Below are positions 3,930 to 39,103 of a DNA stretch of 39,103 nt, piece by piece (positions within the stretch are counted from its first letter, which is position 1; the number at the start of each line of letters is the position of its first letter). This DNA comes from a virus (taxonomy: Duplodnaviria; Caudoviricetes): positions 1-39,103 of IMG/VR virus record IMGVR_UViG_3300020044_007352; one strand, given 5' to 3'. The notes under the pieces were generated by a model that was not told the origin of the DNA, did not search any database, and saw only the letters and a list, made by a program, of their open reading frames with translations. The position numbers and the translations under genes are program-made.

Positions 3930-4171
3930 TGAAAATAATCGCCAAAATATCCAGTGTAGGAATTGATGGAGACTCAGTATCTATTTCTGTTATCGCCAGC
4001 ACAGATAGTTACTACTGCGCGTCCATAAATGTACGATTACCCGTAATAATAATGAATGAAAGTGCATCTATTTTTAATGATAAAATTAAGGAAGAAATAC
4101 GCAAAGCAATGGAGCACGAACACGACCAATGCGACCCAGATTGCATCATTCTTTTAGGGGGTAGAGTTTGA
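3929..4171 (+). CDS. Small hypothetical protein (possible fibre chaperone)
   Basis: 80 aa, TGATG-coupled to the fibre gene; function inferred from position only. Confidence 0.55.
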   Translation: MKIIAKISSVGIDGDSVSISVIASTDSYYCASINVRLPVIIMNESASIFNDKIKEEIRKAMEHEHDQCDPDCIILLGGRV

Positions 4172-4881
4172 AGCCACAGTTGATAGAAACAGCCGGTTAT
4201 CATAATTCTGATTTAAAGAAATCCAGCACCCGAATCATTGAGGGCGCGTCCTGGAAAAAGCAGCGCATAGTCTCCCTGATACCCGCTGGCGCGATGATAC
4301 CAACAAAGGTATATCTGTCTCACTGTGGATTGATATTCCCCCCTAACCAAGCCGTTCACAGAATGGCTGCGATGGGTATGGAAGTTGGGGAAGCCTTTAG
4401 CAACGCGATAGAACAGATTATATCGCCTGATTCACCGGTCAAGGACTGGGAATACATCTTAACCATCGAGCACGACAATATCCCGCCTGCTGACGGGGTT
4501 CTAAAGCTAATCAAGCGCATGGAAGAACACCCCGAATATGCGTGTATTGGTGGGCTTTACTGGACGAAGGGCGAGACGGGCGTACCTCAAATCTGGGGTG
4601 ATATTAAAGACCCTGTAATGAACTTCAGGCCACAGCCGCCCGTTCCCGGTCAACTTGTAGAGTGCTGGGGTACGGGTATGGGGTTTAACTTGTGGCGCAT
4701 GTCAATGTTTAAAGACGAACGATTGCGCAAGCCGTGGTTTAAGACTATGGCGAGTAAGGACGGAGTTGGCACTCAGGATTTATACGCTTGGGCTGACTTT
4801 AGGAAATACGGCTACCGGTGCGCTATAGACTGCGACATCCTTGTAGGCCACTACGACCATGTTCAAGACATCTGCTGGTAG
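4168..4881 (+). CDS. GT-A fold (GT2-like) glycosyltransferase
   Basis: Hydrophobic strand plus DxD-like 'ILTIEHDNIPP', 'GMGFNLW', acidic 'TQDLY' motif and C-terminal 'GHYD'. No transmembrane segments. Confidence 0.75.
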   Translation: MKPQLIETAGYHNSDLKKSSTRIIEGASWKKQRIVSLIPAGAMIPTKVYLSHCGLIFPPNQAVHRMAAMGMEVGEAFSNAIEQIISPDSPVKDWEYILTIEHDNIPPADGVLKLIKRMEEHPEYACIGGLYWTKGETGVPQIWGDIKDPVMNFRPQPPVPGQLVECWGTGMGFNLWRMSMFKDERLRKPWFKTMASKDGVGTQDLYAWADFRKYGYRCAIDCDILVGHYDHVQDICW

Positions 4882-4888
4882 GAAAATA

Positions 4889-5461
4889 ATGAAAAGAAAA
4901 CTTAAATCCGTACCAGTCCCCGAACCTATCCGCCTTGACATTGGCTGCGGCAAAAACAAGAAGCAAGGCTTTATCGGCGTTGACCAGTACGCAATGGACG
5001 GCGTTGATAAAGTCATGGACGTGCGCGGGAAATGGCCATGGAAGGATAGCTCCGTCGATGAAATCCATTGCTCTCATTTTGTCGAGCATTTAACGAACTT
5101 TGGCGACAAATGGGAAAGGGTGCACTTCTTCAATGAAATGTATCGCGTATTACGTCCAGAGGGCAAAGCAACACTTATATTCCCGCACTGGTGCAGCAAT
5201 CGTTACTACGGCGACCCGACGCACTGTGAGCCGTTTTCGGAAATGGGATTTTATTACCTGTCACGCGAATGGCGAGCAACCCAAGCCCCGCACACTGACA
5301 AGCAATTTAACAAAAACGGCTATGATTGTAACTTTGAATGCACGTGGGGATTTAATCTCCGTCCTGACTTATTAAGCCGTAACCAAGAGTACCAAATGGC
5401 GGCAAGCTCAACACAGAAAGAAGCCATACAAGACATTATTGCAACACTGGTTAAAAAGTGA
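4889..5461 (+). CDS. Class I SAM-dependent methyltransferase (small-molecule/glycan type)
   Basis: 'RLDIGCG' motif I, 'SVDEIHCSHFVEH', 'EMYRVLRPEG', 'DPTH'. ATG at 4889 follows AGGAAA. Confidence 0.85.
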   Translation: MKRKLKSVPVPEPIRLDIGCGKNKKQGFIGVDQYAMDGVDKVMDVRGKWPWKDSSVDEIHCSHFVEHLTNFGDKWERVHFFNEMYRVLRPEGKATLIFPHWCSNRYYGDPTHCEPFSEMGFYYLSREWRATQAPHTDKQFNKNGYDCNFECTWGFNLRPDLLSRNQEYQMAASSTQKEAIQDIIATLVKK

Positions 5462-16206: not shown

Positions 16207-16711
16207 CTGCTTAAATTGTGGGAACGCATTTGGGTCATACAACCCTAACCCGATTTATTGTTCAGTATTCTGTAAGTCAGAGGGACAATCGCCAGATGTA
16301 GATATTGAAAGGCTCAGGATTTTATATATAGCAGGGAAAACTCAAAACGAAATAGCGGCAATATTTGGAGTGTCTCAAAAGTCTATATTCAAGGCCATGA
16401 AGCGTCATGGAATAAAAGCCAGAAAAGCCGCGAAAAGAAGCCAGACTAGAGAAAATAACAGCTCATGGAAAGGTGACGAAGCGGGAAAGCAAGCATTCCA
16501 TAGGAGGCTTTATGCAAGATATGGAAAGCCGAGAATTTGCGGGGTTTGTGGCACAACAAAATCCAGTAATTATGATTACGCAAACTTAACTGGAAATTAT
16601 CAGGACATTGAAGATTATCTGCCGATGTGCCGATCTTGCCATTGGAAATACGACAAGAAAATTATGAACATAAAACACATGCGGGAGGTTATAAAAAATG
16701 CTGGAGAATAA
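16193..16711 (+). mobile_element. Free-standing HNH-type homing endonuclease gene (Zn finger + HTH + nuclease)
   Basis: CLNC..YCSVFC, HTH 'TQNEIAAIFGVSQKSI', 'NSSWKG', CGVC...'CRSCHWKYD'. More AT-rich than its neighbours. Confidence 0.75.
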
Positions 16712-17765
16712 GTTAAGAGTTTTGGACTTGTTCTCTGGCATTCAAGTCGGCGGATTCTCGTTAGGTCTAGAGGCCGCCGGATTTGAGACGGTGGCGTTTT
16801 GCGAATACGACAAGGCCGCGCAAAAGGTATTGAAATTACGTTGGCCTAATGTGCCAATATTTGACGACATCAGGGGGTTAGATGAAAGTGTTCTGGGAAA
16901 CTCCGAACTCAAACGAGGACAGGGCGGAGAAATATACCCTGAAAACAACATTGAAACATTTCAGGCAGGGTCGCCAGATACATCTAAGCCAGCAGGTTAT
17001 GAGTCAGGAAATGCACCCATCAAAAAAATACAGTTCGCAGATGTCATTACTGGCGGATACCCATGCCAGCCATTCAGTGCAGCCGGGAAGCGACGAGGCG
17101 CGGAGGATGACCGTCACCTCTGGCCTGAAATGTATCGAATTATTAAAATTGTCCGACCTCGATGGGTTATTGCCGAGAATGTTGCTGGCCACGTCAGCAT
17201 GGGCCTCGACAGTGTGTTATCTGACATGGAAGCTGAAAACTACACCTGCTGGCCGTTTATTATTCCAGCTTGCGCCGTTGACGCCAAACACAGACGGGAC
17301 AGAGTTTGGATTGTTGCCAAGTCCGGTGACAAGCGACGCTACGACGGGGGCGATAATCGGAAAGAACGACACATATTATCAGACATCAACGGGGATGCCG
17401 CGCAAAGTGAATCAGAACGGCAAGGACGCTTCGGTTGGTCTGGCGAGACTGGTCCAGCTATTACCGACACCTCAAGCCTGCGACAACAGGGACAGAGGGA
17501 ACCTATCCAGCGGCGCGGTAATCCGCAGGGCGGCGAAAGGCAAACAGATAATGTTAAGTCAGTCAGTGAGTCACGAATCAGGACAGCTGAATCCAGACTG
17601 GGTGGAAAATTTAATGGGCTATCCGCCTGGCTGGACGAACTTGGATTGCCAAAAGTCAGCAGCGGAGTACCTAAGCGAGCTGATAGGCTTAAACAACTTG
17701 GAAACGCCGTAGTCCCACAAATCCCATACATAATAGGCCGCGCAATCATGGAGGCTGAATCGTGA
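16698..17765 (+). CDS. C5-cytosine DNA methyltransferase, alpha-type subunit
   Basis: Motif I 'DLFSGI(QV)GG', IV 'GGYPCQPFS', VI 'AENV', VIII 'HRRDRVWI', X 'LKQLGNAVVP'. No clear motif IX in this frame. Confidence 0.9.
   Translation: MLENKLRVLDLFSGIQVGGFSLGLEAAGFETVAFCEYDKAAQKVLKLRWPNVPIFDDIRGLDESVLGNSELKRGQGGEIYPENNIETFQAGSPDTSKPAGYESGNAPIKKIQFADVITGGYPCQPFSAAGKRRGAEDDRHLWPEMYRIIKIVRPRWVIAENVAGHVSMGLDSVLSDMEAENYTCWPFIIPACAVDAKHRRDRVWIVAKSGDKRRYDGGDNRKERHILSDINGDAAQSESERQGRFGWSGETGPAITDTSSLRQQGQREPIQRRGNPQGGERQTDNVKSVSESRIRTAESRLGGKFNGLSAWLDELGLPKVSSGVPKRADRLKQLGNAVVPQIPYIIGRAIMEAES
16882..17712 (+). CDS. Nested +1-frame beta subunit of the C5 MTase (TRD-like repeats + motif IX-like)
   Basis: 276 codons open inside the MTase, own AGGGGG RBS. 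Repeats WETP/LPSP/LPTP and 'LNPDWVENLMGYPPGWT'. Analogous to M.EcoHK31I alpha/beta. Confidence 0.7.
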   Translation: MKVFWETPNSNEDRAEKYTLKTTLKHFRQGRQIHLSQQVMSQEMHPSKKYSSQMSLLADTHASHSVQPGSDEARRMTVTSGLKCIELLKLSDLDGLLPRMLLATSAWASTVCYLTWKLKTTPAGRLLFQLAPLTPNTDGTEFGLLPSPVTSDATTGAIIGKNDTYYQTSTGMPRKVNQNGKDASVGLARLVQLLPTPQACDNRDRGNLSSGAVIRRAAKGKQIMLSQSVSHESGQLNPDWVENLMGYPPGWTNLDCQKSAAEYLSELIGLNNLETP

Positions 17766-17965: not shown

Positions 17966-18206
17966 TTGATGATGTATTCAACAGACTGAAAGTAAAGCGC
18001 GGAAGTGAATTACCGCAAGCCAAACTGACAGAGGATGATGTAAGATTAATCCGTCAAGCAGTAGAAGAAAGAGAAAGGCTCAGGGCGGAAGTAAGCCGAC
18101 TGACCAATAAATCATTAGCAGAGTTTTTTAATGTCCATCGTCGTACCATCGACCGCGTTACCGAGGGTTACAACTGGACGCAAATTTAACAGGGGAATTG
18201 ATATGA
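17947..18206 (+). repeat. Perfect 19-bp direct repeat AACAGGGGAATTGATATGA flanking one gene
   Basis: Copies at 17947-17965 and 18188-18206, each containing RBS plus ATG. Confidence 0.95.
17962..18189 (+). CDS. Orphan HTH protein resembling the DNA-binding domain of HNH homing endonucleases
   Basis: 'RGSELPQAKLTEDDVRLIR...SLAEFFNVHRRTIDRV..GYNW'. Confidence 0.65.
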   Translation: MIDDVFNRLKVKRGSELPQAKLTEDDVRLIRQAVEERERLRAEVSRLTNKSLAEFFNVHRRTIDRVTEGYNWTQI

Positions 18207-20434
18207 AATACGAGCAATTTTTACAGAGTAAATCAATAATAGACGAGCCAACTGGGATAAGCGTAGTCCCTGAACTAAACCCCGCATTATTCCCTTTCCA
18301 GCGCGATATTGTGCAATGGGCTTTACAGCGAGGCCGCGCCTGCGTCTTTGCTGACTGCGGAATGGGAAAGACCCCTATGCAGCTTGAGTGGGCGAAGCAT
18401 ATACCGGGTAATGTCTTAATCCTTGCCCCGCTTGCTGTTGCTCAGCAGACAGTCAGGGAAGGCGTTAAGTTTGGCATTGAAGTTAACTACTGCCGGAGTC
18501 AGTCGGAAGTAAAACCGGGGATAACTATCGCCAATTACGAAATGCTAGAGCATTTTGATAATAAATACTTTACCGGGCTAGTGCTGGATGAATCATCAAT
18601 CCTGAAATCCTACGGCGGCGAAACCAGAAAGCAAATAACGGAATTTGCACAGTCTATTGACTTCCGTCTGGCCTGCACCGCAACGCCAGCCCCTAATGAC
18701 CTGATTGAGTTAATCAACCATGCAGAATTTTTAGGCATTATGTCAGGCAAGGAAATCATCGCGTTATTCTTTACGCAAGACGGAAACACTACGCACAACT
18801 GGAGACTGAAAGGACACGCCAAAAAAGACTTCTGGCGCTGGATGTCTCAATGGTCAGTAGCTATCAGAAAGCCATCGGATATGGGCTATGAAGATGGAGA
18901 CTTCGTTTTGCCTGAGCTGGTCTACCACGATATTAACGTCAAGGTCAATAAACCGACTGACGGGTATCTATTCGCAATCGAGGCGCAGACTTTGCAGGAA
19001 AGACTAGAGGCGAGACGGGAAACTATCGATGATAGGGTTTTAGATTGTGCGGCCATTGTGAATAACTCGGCAGAGCAGTTCATTATATGGTGTAACCTCA
19101 ATTCAGAATCGGAAAAGCTGAAAAAATCAATTCCCGGATCAGTAGAGGTTAAAGGCTCGGACACGGTAAAGCACAAAGAAGAGACCGCAATGAAATTCCA
19201 GTCCGGCGAAATAAGAGTTCTGATTAGCAAGCCCACTATCTACGGGTTCGGGCTTAATTTCCAGAATTGCCACAACGTCGTATTTGTCGGATTGTCGGAT
19301 TCATACGAACAGTTCTATCAGGCCGTTCGTAGATGCTGGAGGTTCGGGCAAATAAAACCCGTAAACGCTTACATAATCACAGCAGAAACCGAGGGCGCAG
19401 TATTGAATAATATCAAGCGCAAAGAGCGACAGTCTAACGAAATGTTCAACGAAATAGTAAACCACATGAAAGATTTGCAAATAAATAAAAAGGGGAGACA
19501 GGAAATGAATTACAAAGAGGATGTGGTAACAGGCGATGATTACACTATCTATCTTGGAGACTGCGTGGAGCAAACAAAACGAATAGAGTCTGGATCTGTT
19601 GGACTGACTATATTTAGCCCGCCATTTCCGGGAATGTACGCCTACACCAATTCAAGCAGGGATATAGGTAACACGACTAGTATTGAAGCGATGATGGATC
19701 ATTTTGAGTATTTAATACCGGAGCTTTACCGCGTATCTATGCCGGGCAGAATGTGCTGTATTCACTTGATGCAATTAACCGCGATGCTGAACAGAGACGG
19801 GTATATCGGGATAAAGGACTATCGCGGCGCAGTTATTAACGCGATGATGAAACATAAATGGGTTTATGCCGGGGAAGTTACGATAGACAAAAACCCACAG
19901 ATACAAGCAGTCAGAAACAAAGAACGCGGGCTTTTGTTTAAGACGCTAGCGACCGACTCAAGCCTCATGAGAATGGCGATGGCGGATTACCTAATCTATT
20001 TCCGCAAGCCCGGAGAAAACCCGCAAAAGATACAGGCCGGACAATCCGATAAATATAACCCGGGACAAGGATGGATAACAGAGGAAGAATGGATCGAGTG
20101 GGCGGCCCCGGTCTGGTATCGCCGCACAAAACACTATCCTGGCGGCATACAGGAAACCGACTGCCTGAACGTAAGGCAAGCAAGAGACACGGACGATGAA
20201 AGACATTTATGCCCCCTGCAACTTGGGGTTATAGAAAGGGCGGTTAAGCTATGGAGCGCGCCGGGCGATCTGGTTTTCTCGCCATTTACCGGAGTCGGCT
20301 CCGAGGGCTATCAGGCTCTAAAGTTTGGGCGTAAGTTTGTAGGAATCGAGTTAAAAGAATCCTACTGGAGATCCGCAGCTGAAAATCTTGAATCTGCCAA
20401 GTCTCATAATCAGGATATGTTCAAGTTGTCATGA
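18203..20434 (+). CDS. SF2 (SNF2-like) helicase fused to a beta-class N4C/N6A DNA methyltransferase
   Basis: 'ADCGMGKT', 'LDESS', 'TATP', 'QAVRRCWRFGQ', then 'IFSPPF' ... 'HLCPLQ..VIER' ... 'SPFTGVGS' ... 'GIELKESY'. Start ATG 18203. Confidence 0.85.
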   Translation: MKYEQFLQSKSIIDEPTGISVVPELNPALFPFQRDIVQWALQRGRACVFADCGMGKTPMQLEWAKHIPGNVLILAPLAVAQQTVREGVKFGIEVNYCRSQSEVKPGITIANYEMLEHFDNKYFTGLVLDESSILKSYGGETRKQITEFAQSIDFRLACTATPAPNDLIELINHAEFLGIMSGKEIIALFFTQDGNTTHNWRLKGHAKKDFWRWMSQWSVAIRKPSDMGYEDGDFVLPELVYHDINVKVNKPTDGYLFAIEAQTLQERLEARRETIDDRVLDCAAIVNNSAEQFIIWCNLNSESEKLKKSIPGSVEVKGSDTVKHKEETAMKFQSGEIRVLISKPTIYGFGLNFQNCHNVVFVGLSDSYEQFYQAVRRCWRFGQIKPVNAYIITAETEGAVLNNIKRKERQSNEMFNEIVNHMKDLQINKKGRQEMNYKEDVVTGDDYTIYLGDCVEQTKRIESGSVGLTIFSPPFPGMYAYTNSSRDIGNTTSIEAMMDHFEYLIPELYRVSMPGRMCCIHLMQLTAMLNRDGYIGIKDYRGAVINAMMKHKWVYAGEVTIDKNPQIQAVRNKERGLLFKTLATDSSLMRMAMADYLIYFRKPGENPQKIQAGQSDKYNPGQGWITEEEWIEWAAPVWYRRTKHYPGGIQETDCLNVRQARDTDDERHLCPLQLGVIERAVKLWSAPGDLVFSPFTGVGSEGYQALKFGRKFVGIELKESYWRSAAENLESAKSHNQDMFKLS

Positions 20435-25885: not shown

Positions 25886-26074
25886 ATGGCACACGTCAAA
25901 AAAGATATTAAGCTGATGAAGTCAATGGCCGCAAAAGAAGCGCAACGAGCCGCAGACCTGCGTAAAGCTGGCAAGGCGCGTCAGGCTAAACTGGTAGACA
26001 AAAAGGCCAGAGGCTACATCAACACCGCAACCGAAATGCGGGTAATGAAGCAGAAGGCGAAGAAGAAAAAGTAA
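25886..26074 (+). CDS. Small Lys-rich protein
   Basis: 62 aa; GAGG RBS, TAATG-coupled to terS. Confidence 0.65.
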   Translation: MAHVKKDIKLMKSMAAKEAQRAADLRKAGKARQAKLVDKKARGYINTATEMRVMKQKAKKKK

Positions 26075-26520
26075 TGCCAGCAGGAAGGCCTCTAAAGTAT
26101 GACAGTCCAGAGCAGATGCAGGCCGTTATCGACCAGTATTTTGACGATTGCGCGTACAACAGAAGCCTAACTGTAGACCCAAAACCAGAAGAACCAAGAG
26201 AGCCAATCACTGACGATTTGCACCCTACAATTACAGGGCTTGCGTTAGTGCTTGATTTGACTAGAAAATCTTTAATTGGCTACGAAGTCAAAGAACAATT
26301 TGTAAACACGGTTAAAAGAGCGAAAGACAGAGTGCAGGCTTACGCAGAGCAAAGACTGTTTTATGCAAACGCGACTGGTACTATATTCAGCATGAAGAAT
26401 AACTTTGACTGGAAGGACAAGACAGAAACAGAGATGTCTGGTTCTTTAGGCGTGTACGAACTGTCAGACGAACAGTTAGACCAAAAACTCGCATTAATGG
26501 CGGCAAAGATTAAGCCTTGA
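26074..26520 (+). CDS. terS: Terminase small subunit (P22 gp3-like)
   Basis: 'GRPLKY.SPE.MQ..ID.YF', 'PTITGLAL.L', 'GTIFSMKNNF.WKDK'. Confidence 0.85.
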   Translation: MPAGRPLKYDSPEQMQAVIDQYFDDCAYNRSLTVDPKPEEPREPITDDLHPTITGLALVLDLTRKSLIGYEVKEQFVNTVKRAKDRVQAYAEQRLFYANATGTIFSMKNNFDWKDKTETEMSGSLGVYELSDEQLDQKLALMAAKIKP

Positions 26521-27245
26521 TTACGCTGATTATCCCGTATTATCGTGCGCCTCGCATGTTGGAAGCGCAACTGGACGTTATCAAAGACTACCCGGCTGGC
26601 ATAAAGGTCATCATCGTAGATGACGGAAGCCCTGAACCAGCACTGGACGTGCTGTATACCATTAAGTATCACGCTGACAATGTTTCCCTGTATCGAATCA
26701 ACGTTGACATCCCTTGGAACCGCGAACAAGCCCGCAACCTCGGCGCGTATGTCGCAGATACTCAGTGGATTATCCAAGTCGATATAGACCACGTTCTGCC
26801 CGCTGCCTGCGCTACTCGCCTGCTAGAGTTGACCCTTAACCCGAAAGACTGGTACAGATTCCCTCGCTACCGCCTCGGCAAAGCAGACGAAACCCGCAAG
26901 AAAGACGCGCTTTCCCCTGACGTCGAATACGGCAAGATTCACCCTCATGTTGACTCATTCCTGATAACCCGCGACATGTTCCTATCTAGTCCCTACGATG
27001 AAAGGTACTCTGGTTGTCTGGGTGGCGGCACTCCGTTCACTGCCAGAATGAAACGACTGTATGGCGAGCCTCGCATGTTGCCTGAAGATGTATTCTTGCA
27101 AGTCCACACTAAACACAAGGTCAAGGACGCCTCAATATCTACCCTGTCACGCGATACCTCAGAGTACGCCCGTAGACGTGAGCAGATAGGCGCAAACGAC
27201 AAACCGCCTCAGATGCTACTCCATCCGTGGCATAAGGTGATTTGA
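26517..27245 (+). CDS. GT2-family glycosyltransferase
   Basis: 'ITLIIPYY', 'IIVDDGS', 'ARNLGA', DxD 'VDID'. Confidence 0.9.
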   Translation: MITLIIPYYRAPRMLEAQLDVIKDYPAGIKVIIVDDGSPEPALDVLYTIKYHADNVSLYRINVDIPWNREQARNLGAYVADTQWIIQVDIDHVLPAACATRLLELTLNPKDWYRFPRYRLGKADETRKKDALSPDVEYGKIHPHVDSFLITRDMFLSSPYDERYSGCLGGGTPFTARMKRLYGEPRMLPEDVFLQVHTKHKVKDASISTLSRDTSEYARRREQIGANDKPPQMLLHPWHKVI

Positions 27246-27961
27246 TGGTCACTGATTATCCATTTGTTCATGGCGAAGTCGCCACAATCGAGAAGATTAA
27301 GCAGGGCTTTTCTATCTCACGGATTGGCGACGGAGAACTTGGTTGTATGGATAACGTCCACGGCTATTCCCGCGAAAAGCACAACGACAAGTTATCCAAA
27401 GAGTTGCGGCGGGTCATATCCAATCCGTCAAAGGGTAATCTAGTCGGCATCCCGACAATGGACAAGAAAGGCAGCAAATATAGGACAGTCGAGAAAACCA
27501 CAGGTAAGGAAGTCGGATGGTTCAGGCACAAGGACAGATTCTGCAAACTGCTATCCCCTGACGTTGAGTATTACTCTGCCTTTATATCCCGCCCTGATTG
27601 CGGCGAATGGATGCTGAATGTTGACTATGCCCGACTTGTGCAATCTATCTGGATTGGCAAAAAAACCGCTGTAATCGGGTCGCGGGACAACAAAGAGAAC
27701 AAGGACAACAAGGTACTCAGCGCGGTACGTTTAACTCAGGACTGCGAATATATCGAGTGTCCCTTTTACGGTGCTTATGGTGAGATTGACCGCTTATATA
27801 AGCAGGCACTTTCATCAGGCTGTGATTTAATCCTTATCTCTGCCGGGGTGACTGCTACGTGCTTGGCTGACAGACTATCACCGCACGTCCAGGCGGTAGA
27901 TATTGGTTCAATCGGTGGTTTCCTGCTCAAGATGCTTGGCGCGGAGAAGTGGCATGTATAG
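27242..27961 (+). CDS. GT-D fold (DUF1792-like) glycosyltransferase
   Basis: 'SISRIGDGE', 'SAFISRP', 'LILISAG.TA..LA..L....QAVDIG'. Confidence 0.8.
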   Translation: MMVTDYPFVHGEVATIEKIKQGFSISRIGDGELGCMDNVHGYSREKHNDKLSKELRRVISNPSKGNLVGIPTMDKKGSKYRTVEKTTGKEVGWFRHKDRFCKLLSPDVEYYSAFISRPDCGEWMLNVDYARLVQSIWIGKKTAVIGSRDNKENKDNKVLSAVRLTQDCEYIECPFYGAYGEIDRLYKQALSSGCDLILISAGVTATCLADRLSPHVQAVDIGSIGGFLLKMLGAEKWHV

Positions 27962-28643
27962 CGATAAGGACAGTAAGAATCCTGCATACCGTGAACTGTA
28001 TGAATCCATGCCGTTTATCGAAGCGTATAGTAAACATACGGATATGCGGATTGCAAAGGACGGCCCACGTCTAGCGATTGGCGCGAAGTCTGACGGGTTT
28101 CAAGACTGGGATTTGCATGGTGAGCAACAGATGCAATTCCTGATTTACTCCGGGATTAAACCTGCATCTGCCCTACTGGACTTTGGCTGTGGGACGGGTC
28201 GCTTGATGTGTAAGGCTGTCCCGTATCTATTGCAAGGCAACTACACCGGTATAGATATATCTGCCTCAGCCATAGCTAACTGTATCGACCTATTAGGCAA
28301 TCCATTAATAGCCGACAAGAAACCCAGACTGGTTCAGGGCGACGGGTCACTGAAAGCCGTGAAGGACTACAGTTTCGACTATATCTGGGCGCACTCAGTC
28401 ATTACCCATTTACCGCCTGACATCGTGAAAGAACTGTTTAACGACCTGTCATCCATGCTATTTGGCGAGTTCAGTTTCACGTTTAAGCTATCGCCTGACG
28501 GAATCAACAGAACTGGGCTGAAGCAATGGTCGTACCCGATTAAATGGTTCGTAGACGCTGCTGCTGAATACGGGCTAAAGGCTGAATATATCGGAGTCGA
28601 ATGGCCTGCCGGACAAAAGACTATGAGGGTTGTGCGTGGTTAA
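27954..28643 (+). CDS. Class I SAM-dependent methyltransferase
   Basis: 'LLDFGCGTGR', 'YTGIDIS', 'FDYIWAHSVITHL'. ATG 27954 follows GGAG. Confidence 0.85.
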   Translation: MYSDKDSKNPAYRELYESMPFIEAYSKHTDMRIAKDGPRLAIGAKSDGFQDWDLHGEQQMQFLIYSGIKPASALLDFGCGTGRLMCKAVPYLLQGNYTGIDISASAIANCIDLLGNPLIADKKPRLVQGDGSLKAVKDYSFDYIWAHSVITHLPPDIVKELFNDLSSMLFGEFSFTFKLSPDGINRTGLKQWSYPIKWFVDAAAEYGLKAEYIGVEWPAGQKTMRVVRG

Positions 28644-29370
28644 TGTCGTTACCTTCTTGTGGAATACCGGCTATCGCAACTACAAGCCGGAACACGTCAA
28701 CATGCTGGCAAACATGGTCAAGCATTTCAGTCCTGATTGTGGATTCATCTGCCTGACGGACGAAACGGAAGGGTTTAACGATAAAGTTCAGGTAGTCAAG
28801 CTGCCTGATTCAGCGTATCGAGTCGCAGGGATACAAGCCCCGCAAGGCAAACAGTTCCCGTCCAGCTATCGCCGGTTGTGGTGTTTCTCGGACGAAGCCA
28901 CGATACTAGGTGATAGGATACTGCTACTAGACCTTGACTGCATGGTACTAAGCGACCTTTCCCCGCTGCTTGAGATTGATTCAGACTTTGTAGGATGGAA
29001 GCCCGACTCAGTATGGGGAAGGGAAGATAGACTCGGTGGTGGCACGTGGTTACTTCGCACCGGTCAACTCGGCTGGTTATGGGATAAGTTCACTGATAAC
29101 CCTGTTAAGCTAATCGCAGAGACGAAAGCAATGGGATGGAACGGGTCAGACCAAGCCATACTCAGCCGCTTCCTACAGAACAAATACCCTATCTGGCCTA
29201 AAGGCTCAGGTATATACGGGGTTCAGGACGGGGTGTTCCACTGGGATTTACCGCCTAAAAACGCAAAGGTTATCCATTTCAACGGCGACGAAAAGCCGTG
29301 GAATCAGCGTAAACTCTGGATGAAAGCTATTTGTAATCATTTCTCCGATGCAAGTCCAAGCCCTAAGTAA
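28636..29370 (+). CDS. GT-A fold (GT8-like) glycosyltransferase
   Basis: 'Y..EHVN.LA.MV', 'FICLTD', DxD 'LLDLD', 'SDQA', 'IHFNG..KPW'. Confidence 0.85.
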   Translation: MVNVVTFLWNTGYRNYKPEHVNMLANMVKHFSPDCGFICLTDETEGFNDKVQVVKLPDSAYRVAGIQAPQGKQFPSSYRRLWCFSDEATILGDRILLLDLDCMVLSDLSPLLEIDSDFVGWKPDSVWGREDRLGGGTWLLRTGQLGWLWDKFTDNPVKLIAETKAMGWNGSDQAILSRFLQNKYPIWPKGSGIYGVQDGVFHWDLPPKNAKVIHFNGDEKPWNQRKLWMKAICNHFSDASPSPK

Positions 29371-31786
29371 AGCCGAAAAAATCCAGTTTCTTCAGTTGAT
29401 GGAGGAAAAGGAACGGCGCAACAAGTCCAGAAAGTTCCTGACGGTTTACGAATCGTTCTATGGCTGGCAGCGTGATTTTGTCCGGGCAACCAAGAAGTAT
29501 CACGAGTGCTGTCTTTGTAGCGCAAATCAAATCGGTAAAACTTATTTAGGCACTGACATTGACGCTATGCACCTGCTTGGAGACTATCCCGATGATTGGG
29601 ACGGTCACAAGTTCGACTTCGCCCCGCTATGCTGGGGGCTTGGCTACTCAATGGAGAAGTGTAGAGACCTGCTACAGAAAGCCTTATTTGGCGAATTGCA
29701 GGGCGATAAATTTACAGGGGGATTAGTCCCTGCCGACAGGATTCTAAGCTATCAGCGGGCATCTGGTACGCCTAACGCCTGTCGTACAGTCTGGGTTAAG
29801 CACCGGCTTGGGACTTCCTTGATTCAGTTCTGGTCATATACGCAGGGTCAACACGCTATCATGGGTGACGTGGTTGACTGGGTTCATGTCGATGAAGAAC
29901 CCGAAGACCAGACCATCCGCCCTCAGTTATTGACCCGTACCATTAACGGGGATAACGGGAAAGGTGGACGGGTTATCTATACGTTTACCCCTGAAAACGG
30001 CAAGACCGACCTTGTAATGAAGTTCATGGACGAACCATCCCCGTCTCAGTTCTTCATGCAAAAGGGATGGGACGACGCCCCGCACATGACGGAAGAAAAG
30101 AAAGCCCGTCTGTTGTCTCAGTATCCCAGTCATCAACGGGATATGCGGTCAAAGGGCGAGCCGATGCTGGGTCATGGAAGAATCTATGATATAGGCGATG
30201 AGTTCATAACCTGCGAACCAATCACAGACATTCCTGCGCATTGGTACGTTATCAACGGCATGGATTTTGGATGGTCGCATCCTCAAGCGCACGTTAAATT
30301 GTACGAGGACAGGGACAATGGAATGTTCTATGTCGCTAAAGCATGGAAAGCGAAAGAGGTATCTGCAAACGATGCCTGGGGTGTAGTCAAGGAGTGGGGC
30401 TTACACATCCCGACGGCATGGCCTCATGACGGATTACAGAACGAGAAAGGCCGGGACGATGCCGTTCAGCAGAAAGTCCACTATGAACGCGCCGGATTCA
30501 AAATGCTGCCCGAACACGCCACATGGCCACCGGTATCTGAAAAGGGTGCAATGAAGTCAGGTGGTAACTCAGTCGAGCACGGACTATATGAAATAGGCGA
30601 CCTGATGCGCAAAGGTAAGTTTAAGCTATTCCGTGGACTGACAGACTTATTCGCAGAGTTCAGACAATACCATCGTGACGACAAAGGCAAGATAGTCAAG
30701 ACAATGGACGACTTGCTAGACGCTTGCTTCCACCCAGATACCGAAATAATGACGGATGCAGGCGCTAGAAAGATAGTGGATATGGTTGGCACGTCAGGCC
30801 GCGTTTTGTCTATTGACGGGCAATATCAGAACTATAGTAATTGCAGGCTAACCAGAAAGGACGCTGAAGTTATCAGGCTTACATTTACAGACGGTCATTC
30901 AGTAGTTTGCACCCCAGACCACAGGTTTTTAACTGGAAATGGATGGATAGATGCGATACACTTACATGATGAAAACATCATAGTGAGTGAGCCATGCACA
31001 TACATTTCAACGGAATCAAGTTTACAAAATTTGGCAACTATTACAGGGCGCGCAGAAAATTTCTGCATAGGGAAATCTGGAAGTTTTACAACGGCAATAT
31101 CCCGCCTAAGCACCATATACACCACATTGACGGAAATACTGAAAACAACAGTATTGAGAACTTACAGTGCGTTGACGGGAAAGAGCACCTATCAAGCCAT
31201 AACAAAGGAAAAATATATACGCCTGTTGCCGCTATTGTCGCCGCTGCAAGATGGAGAAAAACAGAGGAAGGCAGGAAGTTTTCGCAAGAGCACGGCAGAA
31301 AAAACGCTGTATATTTGGTTAAGAAAAATATCATCATTAAGTGTGTCGAGTGCGGAATCAGTAAAGAGGTTATATCAAACTTGCAGAACAAGTATTGCAG
31401 CAACAAATGCAAGTCTAGCCACAGGCGCAGGAATGGCCTTGACCTTGAATCAAGGTTATGTGTTAGATGCGGAACTGAATACAGTGTCACAAAGTACGCA
31501 AAGCAAACGCACTGTGGCAAAAGCTGCGAAAGAAAAGACTGGCTATCAACAGAGCAAGGCAAGCAGCACCTTAAAAATCTTGCGGATAGAAAACGCCGGA
31601 AAGAGTGACGTATACTGCCTAGAAGTAGAAAACACCGAAGCTATGGCGCTAAGGAATGGCGCTATAGCGCACAATTGCCGCTATGCCTACATGATGCGCC
31701 GATATGCTGTCAGGGTTGGCGACCTGACCCAAGCTATACCCAAGCCTTACATTCCCAAGTCTATATCAGTCATAGGAAGAAAATAG
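29348..31786 (+). CDS. terL: Terminase large subunit (P22 gp2-like) with intein
   Basis: Walker A 'ANQIGKT', Walker B 'VHVDEE', 'TFTP', nuclease 'GMDFGW.HP' and 'DD.LDA/CRYA'. 495 aa after intein removal. Confidence 0.95.
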   Translation: MQVQALSKAEKIQFLQLMEEKERRNKSRKFLTVYESFYGWQRDFVRATKKYHECCLCSANQIGKTYLGTDIDAMHLLGDYPDDWDGHKFDFAPLCWGLGYSMEKCRDLLQKALFGELQGDKFTGGLVPADRILSYQRASGTPNACRTVWVKHRLGTSLIQFWSYTQGQHAIMGDVVDWVHVDEEPEDQTIRPQLLTRTINGDNGKGGRVIYTFTPENGKTDLVMKFMDEPSPSQFFMQKGWDDAPHMTEEKKARLLSQYPSHQRDMRSKGEPMLGHGRIYDIGDEFITCEPITDIPAHWYVINGMDFGWSHPQAHVKLYEDRDNGMFYVAKAWKAKEVSANDAWGVVKEWGLHIPTAWPHDGLQNEKGRDDAVQQKVHYERAGFKMLPEHATWPPVSEKGAMKSGGNSVEHGLYEIGDLMRKGKFKLFRGLTDLFAEFRQYHRDDKGKIVKTMDDLLDACFHPDTEIMTDAGARKIVDMVGTSGRVLSIDGQYQNYSNCRLTRKDAEVIRLTFTDGHSVVCTPDHRFLTGNGWIDAIHLHDENIIVSEPCTYISTESSLQNLATITGRAENFCIGKSGSFTTAISRLSTIYTTLTEILKTTVLRTYSALTGKSTYQAITKEKYIRLLPLLSPLQDGEKQRKAGSFRKSTAEKTLYIWLRKISSLSVSSAESVKRLYQTCRTSIAATNASLATGAGMALTLNQGYVLDAELNTVSQSTQSKRTVAKAAKEKTGYQQSKASSTLKILRIENAGKSDVYCLEVENTEAMALRNGAIAHNCRYAYMMRRYAVRVGDLTQAIPKPYIPKSISVIGRK
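30725..31675 (+). mobile_element. Intein (317 aa) in the terminase nuclease domain
   Basis: Block A 'CFHPDTEIMT', block B 'CTPDHRFLT', block F 'DVYCLEV', C-terminal 'AHN' followed by +1 Cys. Confidence 0.95.
30994..31608 (+). CDS. HNH homing endonuclease with Zn-finger repeats, nested out of frame in the intein
   Basis: 'LHREIW....G.IP..HHIHHIDGN.ENN.IENL.C....EH...H' followed by CVEC..YCSNKC and CVRC..HCGKSC. Confidence 0.9.
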   Translation: MHIHFNGIKFTKFGNYYRARRKFLHREIWKFYNGNIPPKHHIHHIDGNTENNSIENLQCVDGKEHLSSHNKGKIYTPVAAIVAAARWRKTEEGRKFSQEHGRKNAVYLVKKNIIIKCVECGISKEVISNLQNKYCSNKCKSSHRRRNGLDLESRLCVRCGTEYSVTKYAKQTHCGKSCERKDWLSTEQGKQHLKNLADRKRRKE

Positions 31787-35353: not shown

Positions 35354-36646
35354 ATGGCTACTCTTACCTCCGGCAAAATTGCCGAAGTCATTTTTGAAAA
35401 CGCGCTGGAGACATTCCAGACTCAGGACATGTTGCTTGACAAGGTATCGTTTGGCGTTCCTGATGCTTCAGACCTTCAGAATTCCTCAAACGTCATCTGG
35501 AAATCGGTACAGCAACACGCGCCAGTTATCAGTGGTTGGGATATGACGGGTCTGGAAACAGGCATTATTCAGGAAACCTATCCCTGCGTACTCGGAACAC
35601 CGGAAAACGATATTGTCAGCCTTCGTGCTGATGATATGCGCGATATGCTTTTCTGGGAACAGCGCGGCAAGGTTTCAGGCCGTCGTCAGGCTTCCGACCT
35701 GAACAGCAATCTTATCTCAGCGATTGTCACTCAGGGTTCATTGCATGTCCGTTCTGATGCGACCAGCGGTTATCCGTTTATCGCAGCAGGTCAGGCAATC
35801 ATGAACGAAAGGCAGTTGCCCAAGAATCAGCGTTATTTCTTCCTGAATGACCGCGATACCCTGACCTATGCTTCTGACTTGGCAGCACGTCAGACATTGC
35901 AGGGCAGGCCGGCAGACACATGGAATAACGGTCAGATTGGCGCAAACGTGGCAGAGTTTGACGTTTATACCTGCTCATTCATGCCGAACCTGACGGGCGG
36001 GGCTTCACCGAACACCACTGTCACGGGCAATCAGTCCTTTGCCCCGCAGGGTGGCTCAGTGAACACGACCACACTGGTTGTAACCAACGTTGATTACCGT
36101 ACCGCTGATATTGCGGTAGCTGCGTCAACCAATTACAACGTAGGCGACAAGATACGCTTCCAGAACCCGAACAACGTGGATGTAAACGCTGTTGGCCTGG
36201 ACGACAAAACCAACACCAACGAGCCGATGACCTTCACCATTGTTGGCAAGCCGAACGCAACCACTATCACTGTATTCCCCAAGCCGATAGCGATTAACGA
36301 CCCTGCTTTGTCCACGCTGGAAAAGGCTTACGGCAACATTGACACCCGCATCCTCAACGGTGCTTTGGTGGTTCGCCTGAACACAGACGCATCTGTGAAA
36401 ACAAATGCTTTCTGGGAAAAGGACGCCATTGAAGTCACGGGCGGAACGATACCGGCTAACCTGTTCAAGGAGTTTGCAGGCAAAAAGGTCATCAGTTCAT
36501 CCATGAAGAACGGGCAGACGATGTATATGGTTTATGACGGCGAGATTCTCGGCATGACCTTTACATTCCGTCTGTTCACCTGGTACGGCATCACCATCCG
36601 CAATCCTTCAGCGGTTGGCGTAGCCACAAGGTACACAGCGACCTAG
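35354..36646 (+). CDS. Major capsid protein (P22 gp5-like)
   Basis: 430 aa; 'Q.S.N.IW..V.Q.AP...GW', 'NVDYR', 'GDKI.F', 'RLFTWYG....PS'. Confidence 0.92.
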   Translation: MATLTSGKIAEVIFENALETFQTQDMLLDKVSFGVPDASDLQNSSNVIWKSVQQHAPVISGWDMTGLETGIIQETYPCVLGTPENDIVSLRADDMRDMLFWEQRGKVSGRRQASDLNSNLISAIVTQGSLHVRSDATSGYPFIAAGQAIMNERQLPKNQRYFFLNDRDTLTYASDLAARQTLQGRPADTWNNGQIGANVAEFDVYTCSFMPNLTGGASPNTTVTGNQSFAPQGGSVNTTTLVVTNVDYRTADIAVAASTNYNVGDKIRFQNPNNVDVNAVGLDDKTNTNEPMTFTIVGKPNATTITVFPKPIAINDPALSTLEKAYGNIDTRILNGALVVRLNTDASVKTNAFWEKDAIEVTGGTIPANLFKEFAGKKVISSSMKNGQTMYMVYDGEILGMTFTFRLFTWYGITIRNPSAVGVATRYTAT

Positions 36647-36984: not shown

Positions 36985-37725
36985 TTGTCAACCAAAAGCC
37001 AAATCGTTAATAAAGCCTATGCTCAGTTGAGAATATCAGGCTTGACCGTTGTCGCGTCCCCAGAGGATACGACTATGGCTTTGGGTGAATTAGAGTCCAT
37101 GATGTCTGAATTGTTCTACATGTGGAATCTGGACGTAAATTATAACTTCGAAGCAGTCCCGAACATTAACTCCCAGACTAACGTACCATTTCAGTTTGAT
37201 AACATGATGGTTACAAATCTGGCAGTTCGTTTGATTTCGGCTTTCAACAAAGAAGCCCCTCAGACTCTTTTTAACCAAGCATCTCAATCCCTGTCTGCTG
37301 CTATAGGGTTTAGCGCTGCAATTAACCTGCGTCAAATCCAGCCGCCAAGACGCATGCCTCTAGGGAATGGGAACACTTTCCGTAACGTGTACTTCAATCG
37401 GTTTGCAGTCCCGACCCCGTTACCGCCGCCGGATTCATCGACTAACTACATTCAGCAAGGCGAAACGCTGGACTATTACGAGGACTTTTCTGCCTTTTTA
37501 GGTACGCTCACAATATCGTCATTCACGATTACCAGCGATACATTACTGACTATAGACTCTAGTGCCATATCCGGTAAACGTATTATCTACACGATAACCG
37601 CGCCCGCCGGAGTGAACTATCAAGGCCCGTGGCAGCTTGTCCAGATAACCATTACCGATAGTTCAGGCCGTGTCCTGATAAGGAATATCAATTTCGAGGT
37701 CATTACCCCGCCAGAGGTTCCATAA
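36985..37725 (+). CDS. Head-completion/tail adaptor (P22 gp4-like) with C-terminal beta extension
   Basis: 'TKSQIV..A...L.I.G', 'LE.MM.E', 'NLAVRL...F', 'RRMPLG.GN', then about 90 extra residues. Confidence 0.8.
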   Translation: MSTKSQIVNKAYAQLRISGLTVVASPEDTTMALGELESMMSELFYMWNLDVNYNFEAVPNINSQTNVPFQFDNMMVTNLAVRLISAFNKEAPQTLFNQASQSLSAAIGFSAAINLRQIQPPRRMPLGNGNTFRNVYFNRFAVPTPLPPPDSSTNYIQQGETLDYYEDFSAFLGTLTISSFTITSDTLLTIDSSAISGKRIIYTITAPAGVNYQGPWQLVQITITDSSGRVLIRNINFEVITPPEVP

Positions 37726-37928
37726 TGGCGGAGATGCAAATCCCTTTAATCAAGGGCGACAAGGTAGACGACACTACCGACTATCGAGATGCTTTGCCTA
37801 TTAATATGTCCGGTGTAGTAAAGCCTATCTTGGGCGCTCAGGGCTACATGCTGCAACAGCCTGGACTCACTGAATACGGCATTGCCGAAATAATAACAGA
37901 AGAAGAATACACGATATTCGGGCCATAA
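37725..37928 (+). CDS. Tail hub (P22 gp10-like), N-terminal fragment
   Basis: 'QIPLIKGDK....DYRDALPINM....K.I.G.QGY....PGL' parallels the P22 gp10 N-terminus; stops after 67 aa. Confidence 0.8.
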   Translation: MAEMQIPLIKGDKVDDTTDYRDALPINMSGVVKPILGAQGYMLQQPGLTEYGIAEIITEEEYTIFGP

Positions 37929-37929
37929 C

Positions 37930-38625
37930 ATGCCAGCAGCCATATTCAGAAGGGAATCAGCAATGACGGGCGCGACCCCAAGCACGGGATATGTCCTTGC
38001 TACGCGGGTCAAATTTTCTGGAGAACCAGCAGGGGATGCAACTTTTTTATACGCTGATGACGGCGCAGGTTACGATATTGAAGTTGGATTTTCTCCGTCA
38101 ACAGGCTCAAATAAATTTCTTATTTTATTCCTTACCCAAAATATAGCGGCTGTAGACTATGAATGGATTGCCACAACTGAACCGACAGAGTTTATCCCTG
38201 ATACTTGGTATAGCATTTTAATCAAAGTCTATACGGATTCAGGCGATACAGGATACCCGCTTGAAGTCTGGATAAATGGCGTTGAGATAACAATGGATGC
38301 TACCACATGGGATGGTACTGGTCAGTTAGTGGCGTGGGACGACATGACTGCATGGCAAGTAGGGAACTTTTACGGCGATGAGGTTGTTAGCTCTCGGTTT
38401 ATCTGGTTTGAGCCTTCACTGACCGGCGACCCTTCATACAGTGACTTTTTTGAAGCAAATAACTGCGTTAGAGACTTGGGTGTTGACGGGTCAGTCCCGA
38501 CAGGTAGCCAGCCTATGATTTACATGGCAGGTGGTTCGGTTGATTATCAGGACAATAAAGGCTACGGCGGCGCGTTTCCTATATCTTTTGGCACGATATA
38601 CAGCGGGTCATATACATGCCCCTAA
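37930..38625 (+). CDS. Beta-sandwich (LamG/concanavalin-like) domain protein inserted in gp10
   Basis: 'DTWYSILI...LEVWINGV', 'DLGVDGS.PTG.QP.IY.....NKG.GG.F'; acidic and aromatic. Confidence 0.6.
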   Translation: MPAAIFRRESAMTGATPSTGYVLATRVKFSGEPAGDATFLYADDGAGYDIEVGFSPSTGSNKFLILFLTQNIAAVDYEWIATTEPTEFIPDTWYSILIKVYTDSGDTGYPLEVWINGVEITMDATTWDGTGQLVAWDDMTAWQVGNFYGDEVVSSRFIWFEPSLTGDPSYSDFFEANNCVRDLGVDGSVPTGSQPMIYMAGGSVDYQDNKGYGGAFPISFGTIYSGSYTCP

Positions 38626-39103
38626 ATTATTTCAGTCGCGGCGGATTGTGGAACGAAAGGCAGCAAAACCTTTTCCGGATACTGAACGGCTCTTTCTATT
38701 CGATAAGCCCTGACGGGATAAAGACAAGCCTCGGCGCGGTCACGGGTAACGGGCAGTGCAGCCTTCCCTATTCCTTTAACACGCAAGCGATTATCGGTGG
38801 TGGAAAATACTACTTATACGACCCTGTAAACGGATTCCGGCAAGTCACAGACCCCGACCTCGGCAATCCGATTGATGCTGTATGGGTGGACGGGTATTAC
38901 TTCTTTACCGATGGGGAATATCTCTACCATACCGACATAGCCAACGAATCATCCATCGACCCGCTGAAGTTTGCAACGTCGGAGTTTTCGCCAGACCCGA
39001 CAGTTGGGGTAGGACTCACCACTGACAATAAGGTTATGGCGTTTAACCGCTATACGATTGAGTATTTTATCAATCAGGCTAACGAGAACTTTGCATTTTC
39101 CCG
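38616..39103 (+). CDS. Tail hub (P22 gp10-like), C-terminal part, 3' truncated by window
   Basis: Read manually: MPLNYFSRGGLWNERQQNLFR...DGYYFFTDGEYLYHTDIANESSIDPLKFATSEFSPD...RYTIEYF. Matches gp10 'SRG...ITDLEDES...AESQPD...TIEYF'. Confidence 0.85.
   Translation, partial: MPLNYFSRGGLWNERQQNLFRILNGSFYSISPDGIKTSLGAVTGNGQCSLPYSFNTQAIIGGGKYYLYDPVNGFRQVTDPDLGNPIDAVWVDGYYFFTDGEYLYHTDIANESSIDPLKFATSEFSPDPTVGVGLTTDNKVMAFNRYTIEYFINQANENFAFS

Follow-up and report, generated by a model that had tools for sequence, protein, structure and literature searches.

Glycosyltransferase and methyltransferase genes between terS and terL of a P22-type phage form a mobile cassette and a candidate virion-coat glycosylation system

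Introduction

What do the products of glycan-building genes modify when those genes lie between the two terminase genes of a phage? The question is raised by the window, the whole 39,103-base stretch of DNA analysed here, which is an entire virus record (IMG/VR IMGVR_UViG_3300020044_007352; CheckV completeness 97%) and in which genes for three predicted glycosyltransferases (GTs) and one predicted methyltransferase (MTase) occupy the space between terS and terL, the genes for the terminase small and large subunits. In the literature examined, virion glycosylation by phage enzymes is tied to mycobacteriophages. We find that the set of GT2, GT-D, GT8-like and MTase genes is a real, conserved, mobile cassette, and the evidence favours, with a probability of roughly 0.7 as judged from sequence comparison, the reading that its enzymes would O-glycosylate the virion coat late in infection, in the manner of the phage Corndog system and without the GT25-like enzyme of that system. 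The virion would then probably carry a methylated glycan of a few sugars.

Results

Four overlapping genes separate terS from terL

The initial annotation described four overlapping genes between terS and terL, and the open reading frame (ORF) coordinates, overlaps and family matches confirm that description. Four co-oriented ORFs occupy the gap and are chained to each other and to the flanking genes by overlaps of 4 nt (terS/GT2), 1-4 nt (GT2/GT-D), 8 nt (GT-D/MTase), 14 nt (MTase/GT8) and 23 nt (GT8/terL); the GC content of the cassette is in line with that of the genome. The genes and their flanks are:

26074-26520, plus strand: terminase small subunit, left flank (PF16677, E 1e-19; phrog_606)
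26517-27245, plus strand: GT2/GT-A glycosyltransferase (PF00535, E 3e-9), with DDGS and DxD motifs
27242-27961, plus strand: GT-D (DUF1792) glycosyltransferase (PF08759, E 7e-19, above cut-off), starting at TTG 27242 or ATG 27245
27954-28643, plus strand: class I S-adenosylmethionine-dependent methyltransferase (Methyltransf_12, E 1e-12)
28630-29370, plus strand: GT8-like glycosyltransferase (PF01501, E 1e-6; phrog_1962), DxD at 101-103; candidate first-sugar enzyme
29348-31786, plus strand: terminase large subunit with intein, right flank (PF03237, PF17289, PF14890)

All four family assignments proposed at the outset are upheld by Pfam profiles, and those of GT2 and GT-D by structure comparison as well. 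The AlphaFold model of GT2 (predicted local distance difference test, pLDDT, 95) has GT-A enzymes as its Foldseek matches, and residues D35, D36, D89 and D91 are invariant in 74 sequences. For the GT-D model (pLDDT 91), the top three Foldseek matches are all DUF1792 structures (4pfx, 4phr and 5v4a; template-modelling (TM) scores 0.72-0.75; 4pfx, E 1.6e-12, TM 0.75), and DUF1792 structures are the only matches at E < 0.001. The GT-D profile aligns with that of 4phr at E 3e-31 with the R-x-G-D-G-E motif in register, and among 57 sequences E32 is invariant and D30 nearly so; the acidic D-x-E motif is presumably catalytic. A manganese-binding glutamate is mentioned for the GT-D fold in a paper according to which DUF1792 is the one GT-D enzyme to have been characterised (PMC8784642). 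The MTase most likely starts at ATG 27954, judging from the length of the product (229 aa; homologue 228 aa), rather than at TTG 27903. The GT8 profile has weak Protein Data Bank matches to glycogenin and Skp1 Gat1 (E about 0.004) and a weak match to LgtC as well, and the sequence neighbours of GT8 in the Atlas are mostly viral.

The initial statement that terS and terL are normally adjacent holds in two relatives, L349 and L357, which are free of the cassette at this point: in L349 a PHROG-confirmed terS lies directly beside terL, and in L357 a 143-aa ORF of no known family abuts terL. A crude scan of 26074-29370 revealed no promoter-like or terminator-like site inside. Kyte-Doolittle 19-mer means revealed no hydrophobic stretch above 1.52 in any of six proteins (those of the cassette and of a GT/MTase pair encoded at 4168 and 4859), in agreement with the initial remark that transmembrane segments are lacking. 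As an argument about the target that remark is weak, because many GT2 and GT8 enzymes of lipopolysaccharide (LPS) synthesis are soluble too.

The cassette recurs beside virion and packaging genes of unrelated phages

Close database relatives number 64 for GT-D and 580 for GT2. A single-protein scan of viral contigs returned no GT-D locus and one GT8 locus, and loci were gathered by alignment scans, from each of which we took the 80 best loci, out of 91 for GT-D and 118 for GT2. These, together with the one GT8 locus, a cultured record and the window, collapse at 90% nucleotide identity to 87 groups. GT2 is present in 79 of the groups, GT-D in 74 and GT8 in 78, the first two counts being inflated by the search design and the third not, since GT8 was the query for one locus only; 64 groups have all three. 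Nine of 57 GT-D-anchored groups have neither GT2 nor GT8, or lack one of them, and all nine reach a locus end. In three groups (L018, L036 and L045) GT2 and GT-D are fused into one ORF, and the minimal sets consist of GT2 and GT8 (L130, L135, L138 and L083). Catalytic-type residues are invariant across 30-90% identity.

The remaining positions of the cassette vary. Some MTase is present in 68/87 groups, the family of the window MTase in 17/87, and in relatives the MTase slot is held by other MTase families, TylF/Methyltransf_24 accounting for 4/87. Accessory genes comprise a Maf/MptE-like transferase (35 groups), a PseB-like dehydratase (23), a UDP-sugar dehydrogenase (8) and a sulfotransferase (3).

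Homologous cassettes unlinked to structural genes had been named initially as an outcome that would count against virion glycosylation. For the most part that outcome is not what we see: a packaging or virion gene is present within 1.5 kb of the cassette in 77/87 groups, on both sides in 26. PHROGs do not confirm the portal-like cluster on which four of the 77 depend, and without that cluster the count is 73. The remaining ten comprise three groups that reach a contig end, two with such a neighbour at 1.9 kb, one (L033) in which the cassette precedes genes that we read as head-like, and four clear exceptions. The insertion junctions vary (terS|terL, terL|portal, portal|capsid, capsid|adaptor, head closure|neck), and the portals of these phages belong to at least five families.

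A search of 50,697 phage records gave a single cultured match, 'Tetraselmis viridis virus' S20/SI1, a tailed virus in which the set lies between the major capsid and head-closure genes. For this locus (L002, NC_020840.1) an alga is listed as host; its genes, HK97-type head genes included, are those of a tailed phage, which would make the host bacterial. A pattern scan of GTDB, of low sensitivity, returned two loci, one of them (L141) a phage-like contig in a metagenome-assembled genome of Rhizorhabdus and the other L142. A quick tree of GT8 sequences resolves paralogous subfamilies and no order of events.

Related gene arrangements were seen in other phages. Six lambda-like phages (L007, L018, L022, L029, L031 and L061) carry a second, paralogous GT8 gene directly 3' of the major capsid gene. 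In many HK97-like phages (L324, L330, L335 and others in L268-L343) a Maf/MptE-like gene lies between the head-tail adaptor and head-closure genes, often with a GT8-like gene and Methyltransf_24. A long sugar-pathway cluster lies 3' of a Ser-ending lambda-like capsid gene in L195 (9183-18818) and by our own reading holds GT8-like, Maf-like, nucleotidyltransferase-like, epimerase and other enzyme-like ORFs.

The coat protein ends in a candidate attachment site

The proposed substrate and the proposed site within it are:

35354-36646, plus strand: P22-type coat protein, proposed substrate (PF11651, E 4e-63)
36635-36643, plus strand: codons for the coat extension Thr428-Ala429-Thr430, proposed from the sequence as the attachment site

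The window coat extends three residues beyond the equivalent of Tyr427, where most close coats stop. The closest near-complete coat relative (L347), 78% identical and found through the coat alone, has the same Thr-Ala-Thr tail and carries GT-D and GT8 directly upstream of the coat gene, ending 170 bases before the coat match, whereas L349 and L357 have neither cassette nor Thr-Ala-Thr tail in the 3-21 kb stretches analysed. Only 5/74 close coats end in Ser or Thr, and two of the five, those of the window and L347, belong to cassette carriers; L350 and L351 are of the same clade as these two and their sequences do not include the terminase region, and in L403 no cassette was seen. The cassette was found in 0/75 IMG/VR loci with a complete coat gene, of which only nine demonstrably reach upstream of the terL homologue.

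Across cassette loci, a Ser or Thr end is found in 21/32 capsids (8 clusters), 1/20 adaptors, 3/22 neck proteins, 3/41 portals and 11/26 tail tube proteins. When loci with and without cassette-family GTs are compared within a capsid family, the class with GTs including loci that have a GT8-family match only, Ser/Thr-ending capsids number 11/13 with GTs vs. 1/16 without in the HK97-like family and 10/10 vs. 11/41 in the lambda-like family. From these tables we dropped read-through ends (L207, L231, L334 and L342), short-flank loci, duplicates and Maf-only loci (12 HK97-like, 2 lambda-like). A Pfam scan of 130/215 representative unknown ORFs in the control loci brought up a single GT gene, GT9-like, in L206; divergent GTs may remain among the controls counted as having no GT.

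Two further arrangements join such capsids to GTs. A Ser-ending HK97-like capsid gene and a 92-aa ORF precede a lone GT8 homologue in L300 (821-3850) and also in L302, whereas in most GT-less sisters of L300 the capsid ends in Pro. In L405 (9995-18804), and also in L404, a P22-type coat has a poly-Ser C-terminal tail, and downstream of it lie an MTase related to that of the window, a GT2-like gene and a GT9+GT4-like gene. The C-terminus of the P22 coat protein is exposed to the outside of the particle. We regard the capsid C-terminus as a suggestive, not proven, sequence clue to the substrate. Given coat glycosylation, that the C-terminal Thr of the coat serves as attachment site is about an even bet.

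A separate GT and MTase pair travels with a fibre gene

The initial annotation also joined the cassette to a second GT and MTase pair in one pathway of four GTs and two MTases. That pair belongs to the following module:

1140-5461, plus strand: Ser/Thr/Asn-rich fibre-like protein (1140-3929), small ORF, GT-A-like protein (4168-4881) and MTase (4859-5461)

Both ORFs of the pair exist, and the GT2 label given to the first is weak (Pfam E 0.027; 14% of Atlas neighbours carry PF00535). The 4168 GT has no clear relative in the Protein Data Bank (SpsA, E 0.033) and no match to Che8 gp110. Its family, with at least 6,468 relatives, is highly conserved and mostly without a Pfam name, the best 120 relatives being 72-90% identical. 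In 43 viral loci with the 4168 GT (40 groups including the window), an MTase of the 4859 type is present in 39, and a homologue of fibre 1140-3929 is present in 30/40 groups, usually just upstream. The fibres encoded at 37-1224 and 1140-3929 are 25-26% Ser+Thr, and fibre homologues hold 536 N-x-S/T motifs vs. 411 expected from shuffles, an excess that may only reflect repeats.

The two modules were never found together: the 4168 GT is present in 0/49 cassette records (positive control found in 5/5), and GT-D in 0/39 records with the 4168 GT, many of which are fragments and 11 of which are near-complete. These counts, with the pairing to fibre genes, speak against a single six-enzyme pathway, which we rejected; the cassette and the 4168-5461 pair travel independently. 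On the sequence comparisons, we conclude that the pair is a distinct module travelling with a Ser/Thr/Asn-rich fibre.

Genome setting

Family scans show that the genes for head and tail are of P22 type (terS, terL, portal, scaffold, coat, gp4, gp10, ejection proteins and head-binding spike) and that the early genes are lambdoid (Erf, NinB and NinG). An endolysin gene is followed by genes for membrane proteins and by ORF 25302, which is lipoprotein-like, an order that we take to be a spanin pattern; this layout suggests that the host is probably Gram-negative.

Within terL, around 30994-31608, an intein (PF14890, terL residues 468-776) is accompanied by an HNH endonuclease ORF in a different frame on the same strand; the intein is missing from relatives L348 and L349. 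At 37725-39103 the gp10 head-closure gene is interrupted by a 231-aa ORF (37930-38625) with weak lectin-like Pfam matches; gp10 is uninterrupted in L349, L352, L357 and L359, and the break in the window may be natural or an assembly artefact. A C5 DNA methyltransferase is encoded at 16698-17765 and is overlapped by a second MTase-related ORF in another frame (16882-17712), an arrangement that recalls two-subunit overlapping MTases. At 18131-20434 a helicase is fused to an N6/N4 DNA methyltransferase domain.

Discussion

Proposed mechanism

According to the hypothesis that the cassette glycosylates the coat, translational coupling through the overlapping genes would cause the enzymes to be made late, with terminase and coat; the glycogenin-like GT8 would add the first sugar to the terminal Thr of the coat from host nucleotide sugars; GT2 and GT-D would lengthen the chain, much as DUF1792 and CgT act one after the other on Fap1; and the MTase would cap a sugar. 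The identity of the initiator is a guess, because searches brought up no homologue of the GT25-like enzyme that is reported to be essential in Che8 and Corndog, and we put GT8 rather than GT2 in this role at slightly under even odds. In relatives, the Maf-like transferase, PseB-like dehydratase, UDP-sugar dehydrogenase, sulfotransferase and other MTases may diversify the glycan. Possible benefits are surface shielding, altered adsorption and particle stability.

The initial proposal of a virion glycan on capsid or fibres is supported in its first part, a late, cytoplasmic cassette whose target is most likely a virion protein; fibres are less favoured, having a GT and MTase of their own. The evidence points to the coat rather than the fibres as substrate. 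A broader proposal can be made that Gram-negative phages trade a plug-in O-glycosylation kit in which GT8 primes a C-terminal Ser/Thr tag, GT2 and GT-D extend, and methyl-, sulfo-, Maf-like and nucleotide-sugar modules diversify, that unrelated capsids gain the tag together with the cassette, and that the window virion bears two independent glycans, the second fibre-specific; we offer this broader proposal tentatively, as one that would sooner fail than hold.

Evidence for and against coat glycosylation

Several results weigh against coat glycosylation. As to the coat tail, 11/32 cassette-locus capsids are without a Ser/Thr end, GT-less lambda-like capsids also end in Ser or Thr in the share given above, and in a wider search of P22-type coats 48/113 do so. 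The link between capsid tail and cassette is confounded by kinship, with too few independent pairs (HK97-like, 4 pairs, p 0.25; lambda-like, 3 pairs, p 1; P22-like, one pair), and without the context filter the capsid-tail tables give p 0.11 and 0.32. As to location, terL is convergent, on the opposite strand, in 9/77 adjacent cases, and the cassettes of L046, L062, L066 and L138 follow lysis or replication genes or sit among other non-virion genes. As to the enzymes, no counterpart of Corndog gp36 or of the GT25-like gp38/gp110 was found among the cassette profiles (GT8 vs. gp38, hhalign P 0.1), and in L142 a 27%-identical GT-D lies in a GT2-GT-D-FkbM cellular locus of polysaccharide type, so the GT-D fold is not protein-specific. 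Finally, a place among late genes near terminase would suit DNA modification at packaging too.

That last point leads to the possibility that phage DNA is the substrate and receives sugars from the cassette enzymes at about the time of packaging, with some unrecognised enzyme providing the base handle. Besides the location between terS and terL, it draws on the C5 methyltransferase in the window and on the occurrence of GTs beside terminase among DNA-modifying clusters (10.1101/2023.12.21.572611). The described routes, in the parts of the sources consulted, need a thymidylate-synthase homologue or a 5mYOX oxygenase (10.1101/2023.12.21.572611, PMC13326640), whereas thymidylate synthase is present in 0/49 cassette records (control positive in 10/14) and in none of the window ORFs scanned, 2OG-FeII_Oxy_3 in 0/26 records, and Tet_JBP in 0/49, the last without a positive control, so that a divergent oxygenase could be missed. 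The initial statement that no base-modifying enzymes are evident agrees with these searches for oxygenase and thymidylate-synthase homologues, but the genome does encode the C5 DNA methyltransferase. That enzyme occurs in 7/20 near-complete cassette records (8/26 overall) and is unlinked to the cassette in the window, and the cassette shifts among head and neck junctions, not replication genes. We consider a DNA substrate quite improbable.

The enzymes could instead modify host LPS or another surface glycan, for serotype conversion, superinfection exclusion or masking of receptors on debris. The solubility of LPS enzymes in the GT2 and GT8 families and the weak LgtC match suit such a role, as do the nucleotide-sugar enzymes that relatives add and that are typical of O-antigen loci, the GT2-GT-D-FkbM set of the cellular locus L142 and the four loci away from virion genes. 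It is nonetheless unlikely: GtrA and serine recombinase are each found in 0/26 cassette records, tyrosine integrase in 3/20 near-complete records (4/26 overall), and neither tyrosine integrase nor serine recombinase was found in the 97%-complete window genome; and the cassette, with its overlaps with terS and terL and no promoter-like site, is unlike a lysogen-expressed moron. Gtr-type conversion in particular was rejected, there being no GtrA, no membrane GT and no integrase, and the location being in the late operon.

A target elsewhere in the virion instead of the coat, for example the Ser/Thr/Asn-rich fibres, on which the cassette would act by itself or with the 4168-5461 pair, would agree with the Ser+Thr content of both fibres and with the tail tubes that end in Ser or Thr in cassette loci; moreover, one GT-D match and one 4168-GT match each lie on a 27,475-base contig from JGI, which may be the same contig. 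Against it, the modules never occur together in the records compared above, and a GT and an MTase of its own travel with the fibre, which makes this reading improbable, although in the window phage alone the cassette may lengthen the fibre glycan. Least probable of all, and very much so, is a role in making a small-molecule glycoside, or no role at all, the cassette being neutral cargo that the late operon tolerates. The families found in the MTase slot do act on small molecules or sugars, and the accessory genes are variable, but the catalytic-type residues are invariant over the whole identity range, the overlaps are tight, and the placement beside virion genes recurs.

Coat glycosylation, if true, would mean that podo- and siphoviruses with probably Gram-negative hosts achieve with other enzymes what is reported from mycobacteriophages, and that this enzyme set moves between unrelated head modules. 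It would change the annotation of GTs in virion operons, where LPS gene and auxiliary metabolic gene are frequent labels, bring phage enzymes into the GT-D fold, of which very little is characterised, yield a small set of soluble enzymes together with a candidate tag of three residues, and make the role of a glycan coat for environmental phages testable.

Comparison with known systems

The literature searched, which included few subscription journals and no supplements, where such genes may be listed, yielded no description of a GT2/GT-D/GT8 phage cassette. GtrABC of P22 is a serotype conversion system; it resembles the cassette in placing GT genes in a P22-type phage and differs in that the cassette phage has no GtrA, membrane GT or integrase and carries the cassette in a late operon. 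Sugar hypermodification of DNA likewise involves serial phage GTs, sometimes with epimerases and sometimes near terminase (10.1101/2023.12.21.572611, PMC13326640), but searches of the window and of the cassette records turned up no enzyme that would activate a base.

On streptococcal Fap1, a serine-rich repeat protein (SRRP), DUF1792 and its GT-A partner CgT (dGT1) are described as acting sequentially (PMC5063993, PMC6973325). The cassette shares with that system the GT-D fold, the aligned D-G-E motif, a GT-A/GT2 partner (fused in three relatives) and the proposed sequential extension in the cytoplasm. It differs in that family scans of the window found no GtfA/GtfB or accessory secretion genes and that the SRRP context, in which GT-D enzymes transfer from UDP-glucose to a protein-linked disaccharide, is absent, that the order of the cassette fusion is reversed relative to dGT1 (GT2 first), and that the window GT-D scores 71 bits vs. 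the 291-bit cut-off of TIGR03728.

The closest likeness in organisation is to gp35-38 of the cluster O mycobacteriophage Corndog, with gp108-110 of Che8 as a related set; in Corndog an O-methyltransferase and three GTs lie between portal and protease genes (PMC4351075) and enzymes of the Corndog type are reported to glycosylate capsid and tail tube (PMC11600133). In both phages three GTs and one methyltransferase are encoded by overlapping genes in the head operon, and the last capsid residue bears a hydroxyl group in both, Ser in Corndog and Thr in the window phage; inspection of the sequences shows that the Corndog tail tube ends in Ser as well. The attachment site in the Corndog/Che8 system is reportedly at the capsid C-terminus. 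The window GT2 is a distant homologue of gp37 of Corndog and gp109 of Che8, aligning with gp37 over its full length (hhalign P 92.6, E 4.7e-7, 189 columns), and its hidden Markov model scores gp37 and gp109 at 25.9 and 18.6 bits, a likeness at superfamily level. The differences lie in the partners. Corndog gp38 and Che8 gp110, which match PF01755, are stated to be essential (PMC11600133, PMC12363180, PMC11256854, PMC12582341), whereas the cassette has GT8-like and GT-D enzymes in their place; gp35 and gp108 are of the TylF/Methyltransf_24 family, whereas the window MTase is Methyltransf_12-like; and the cassette is mobile across unrelated head types, in the window in a phage whose host is probably Gram-negative. 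Membership of the Corndog/Che8 family was rejected for want of a gp36 or GT25-like gp38/gp110 homologue. On this comparison, we conclude that the cassette probably works like the Corndog system while standing outside it.

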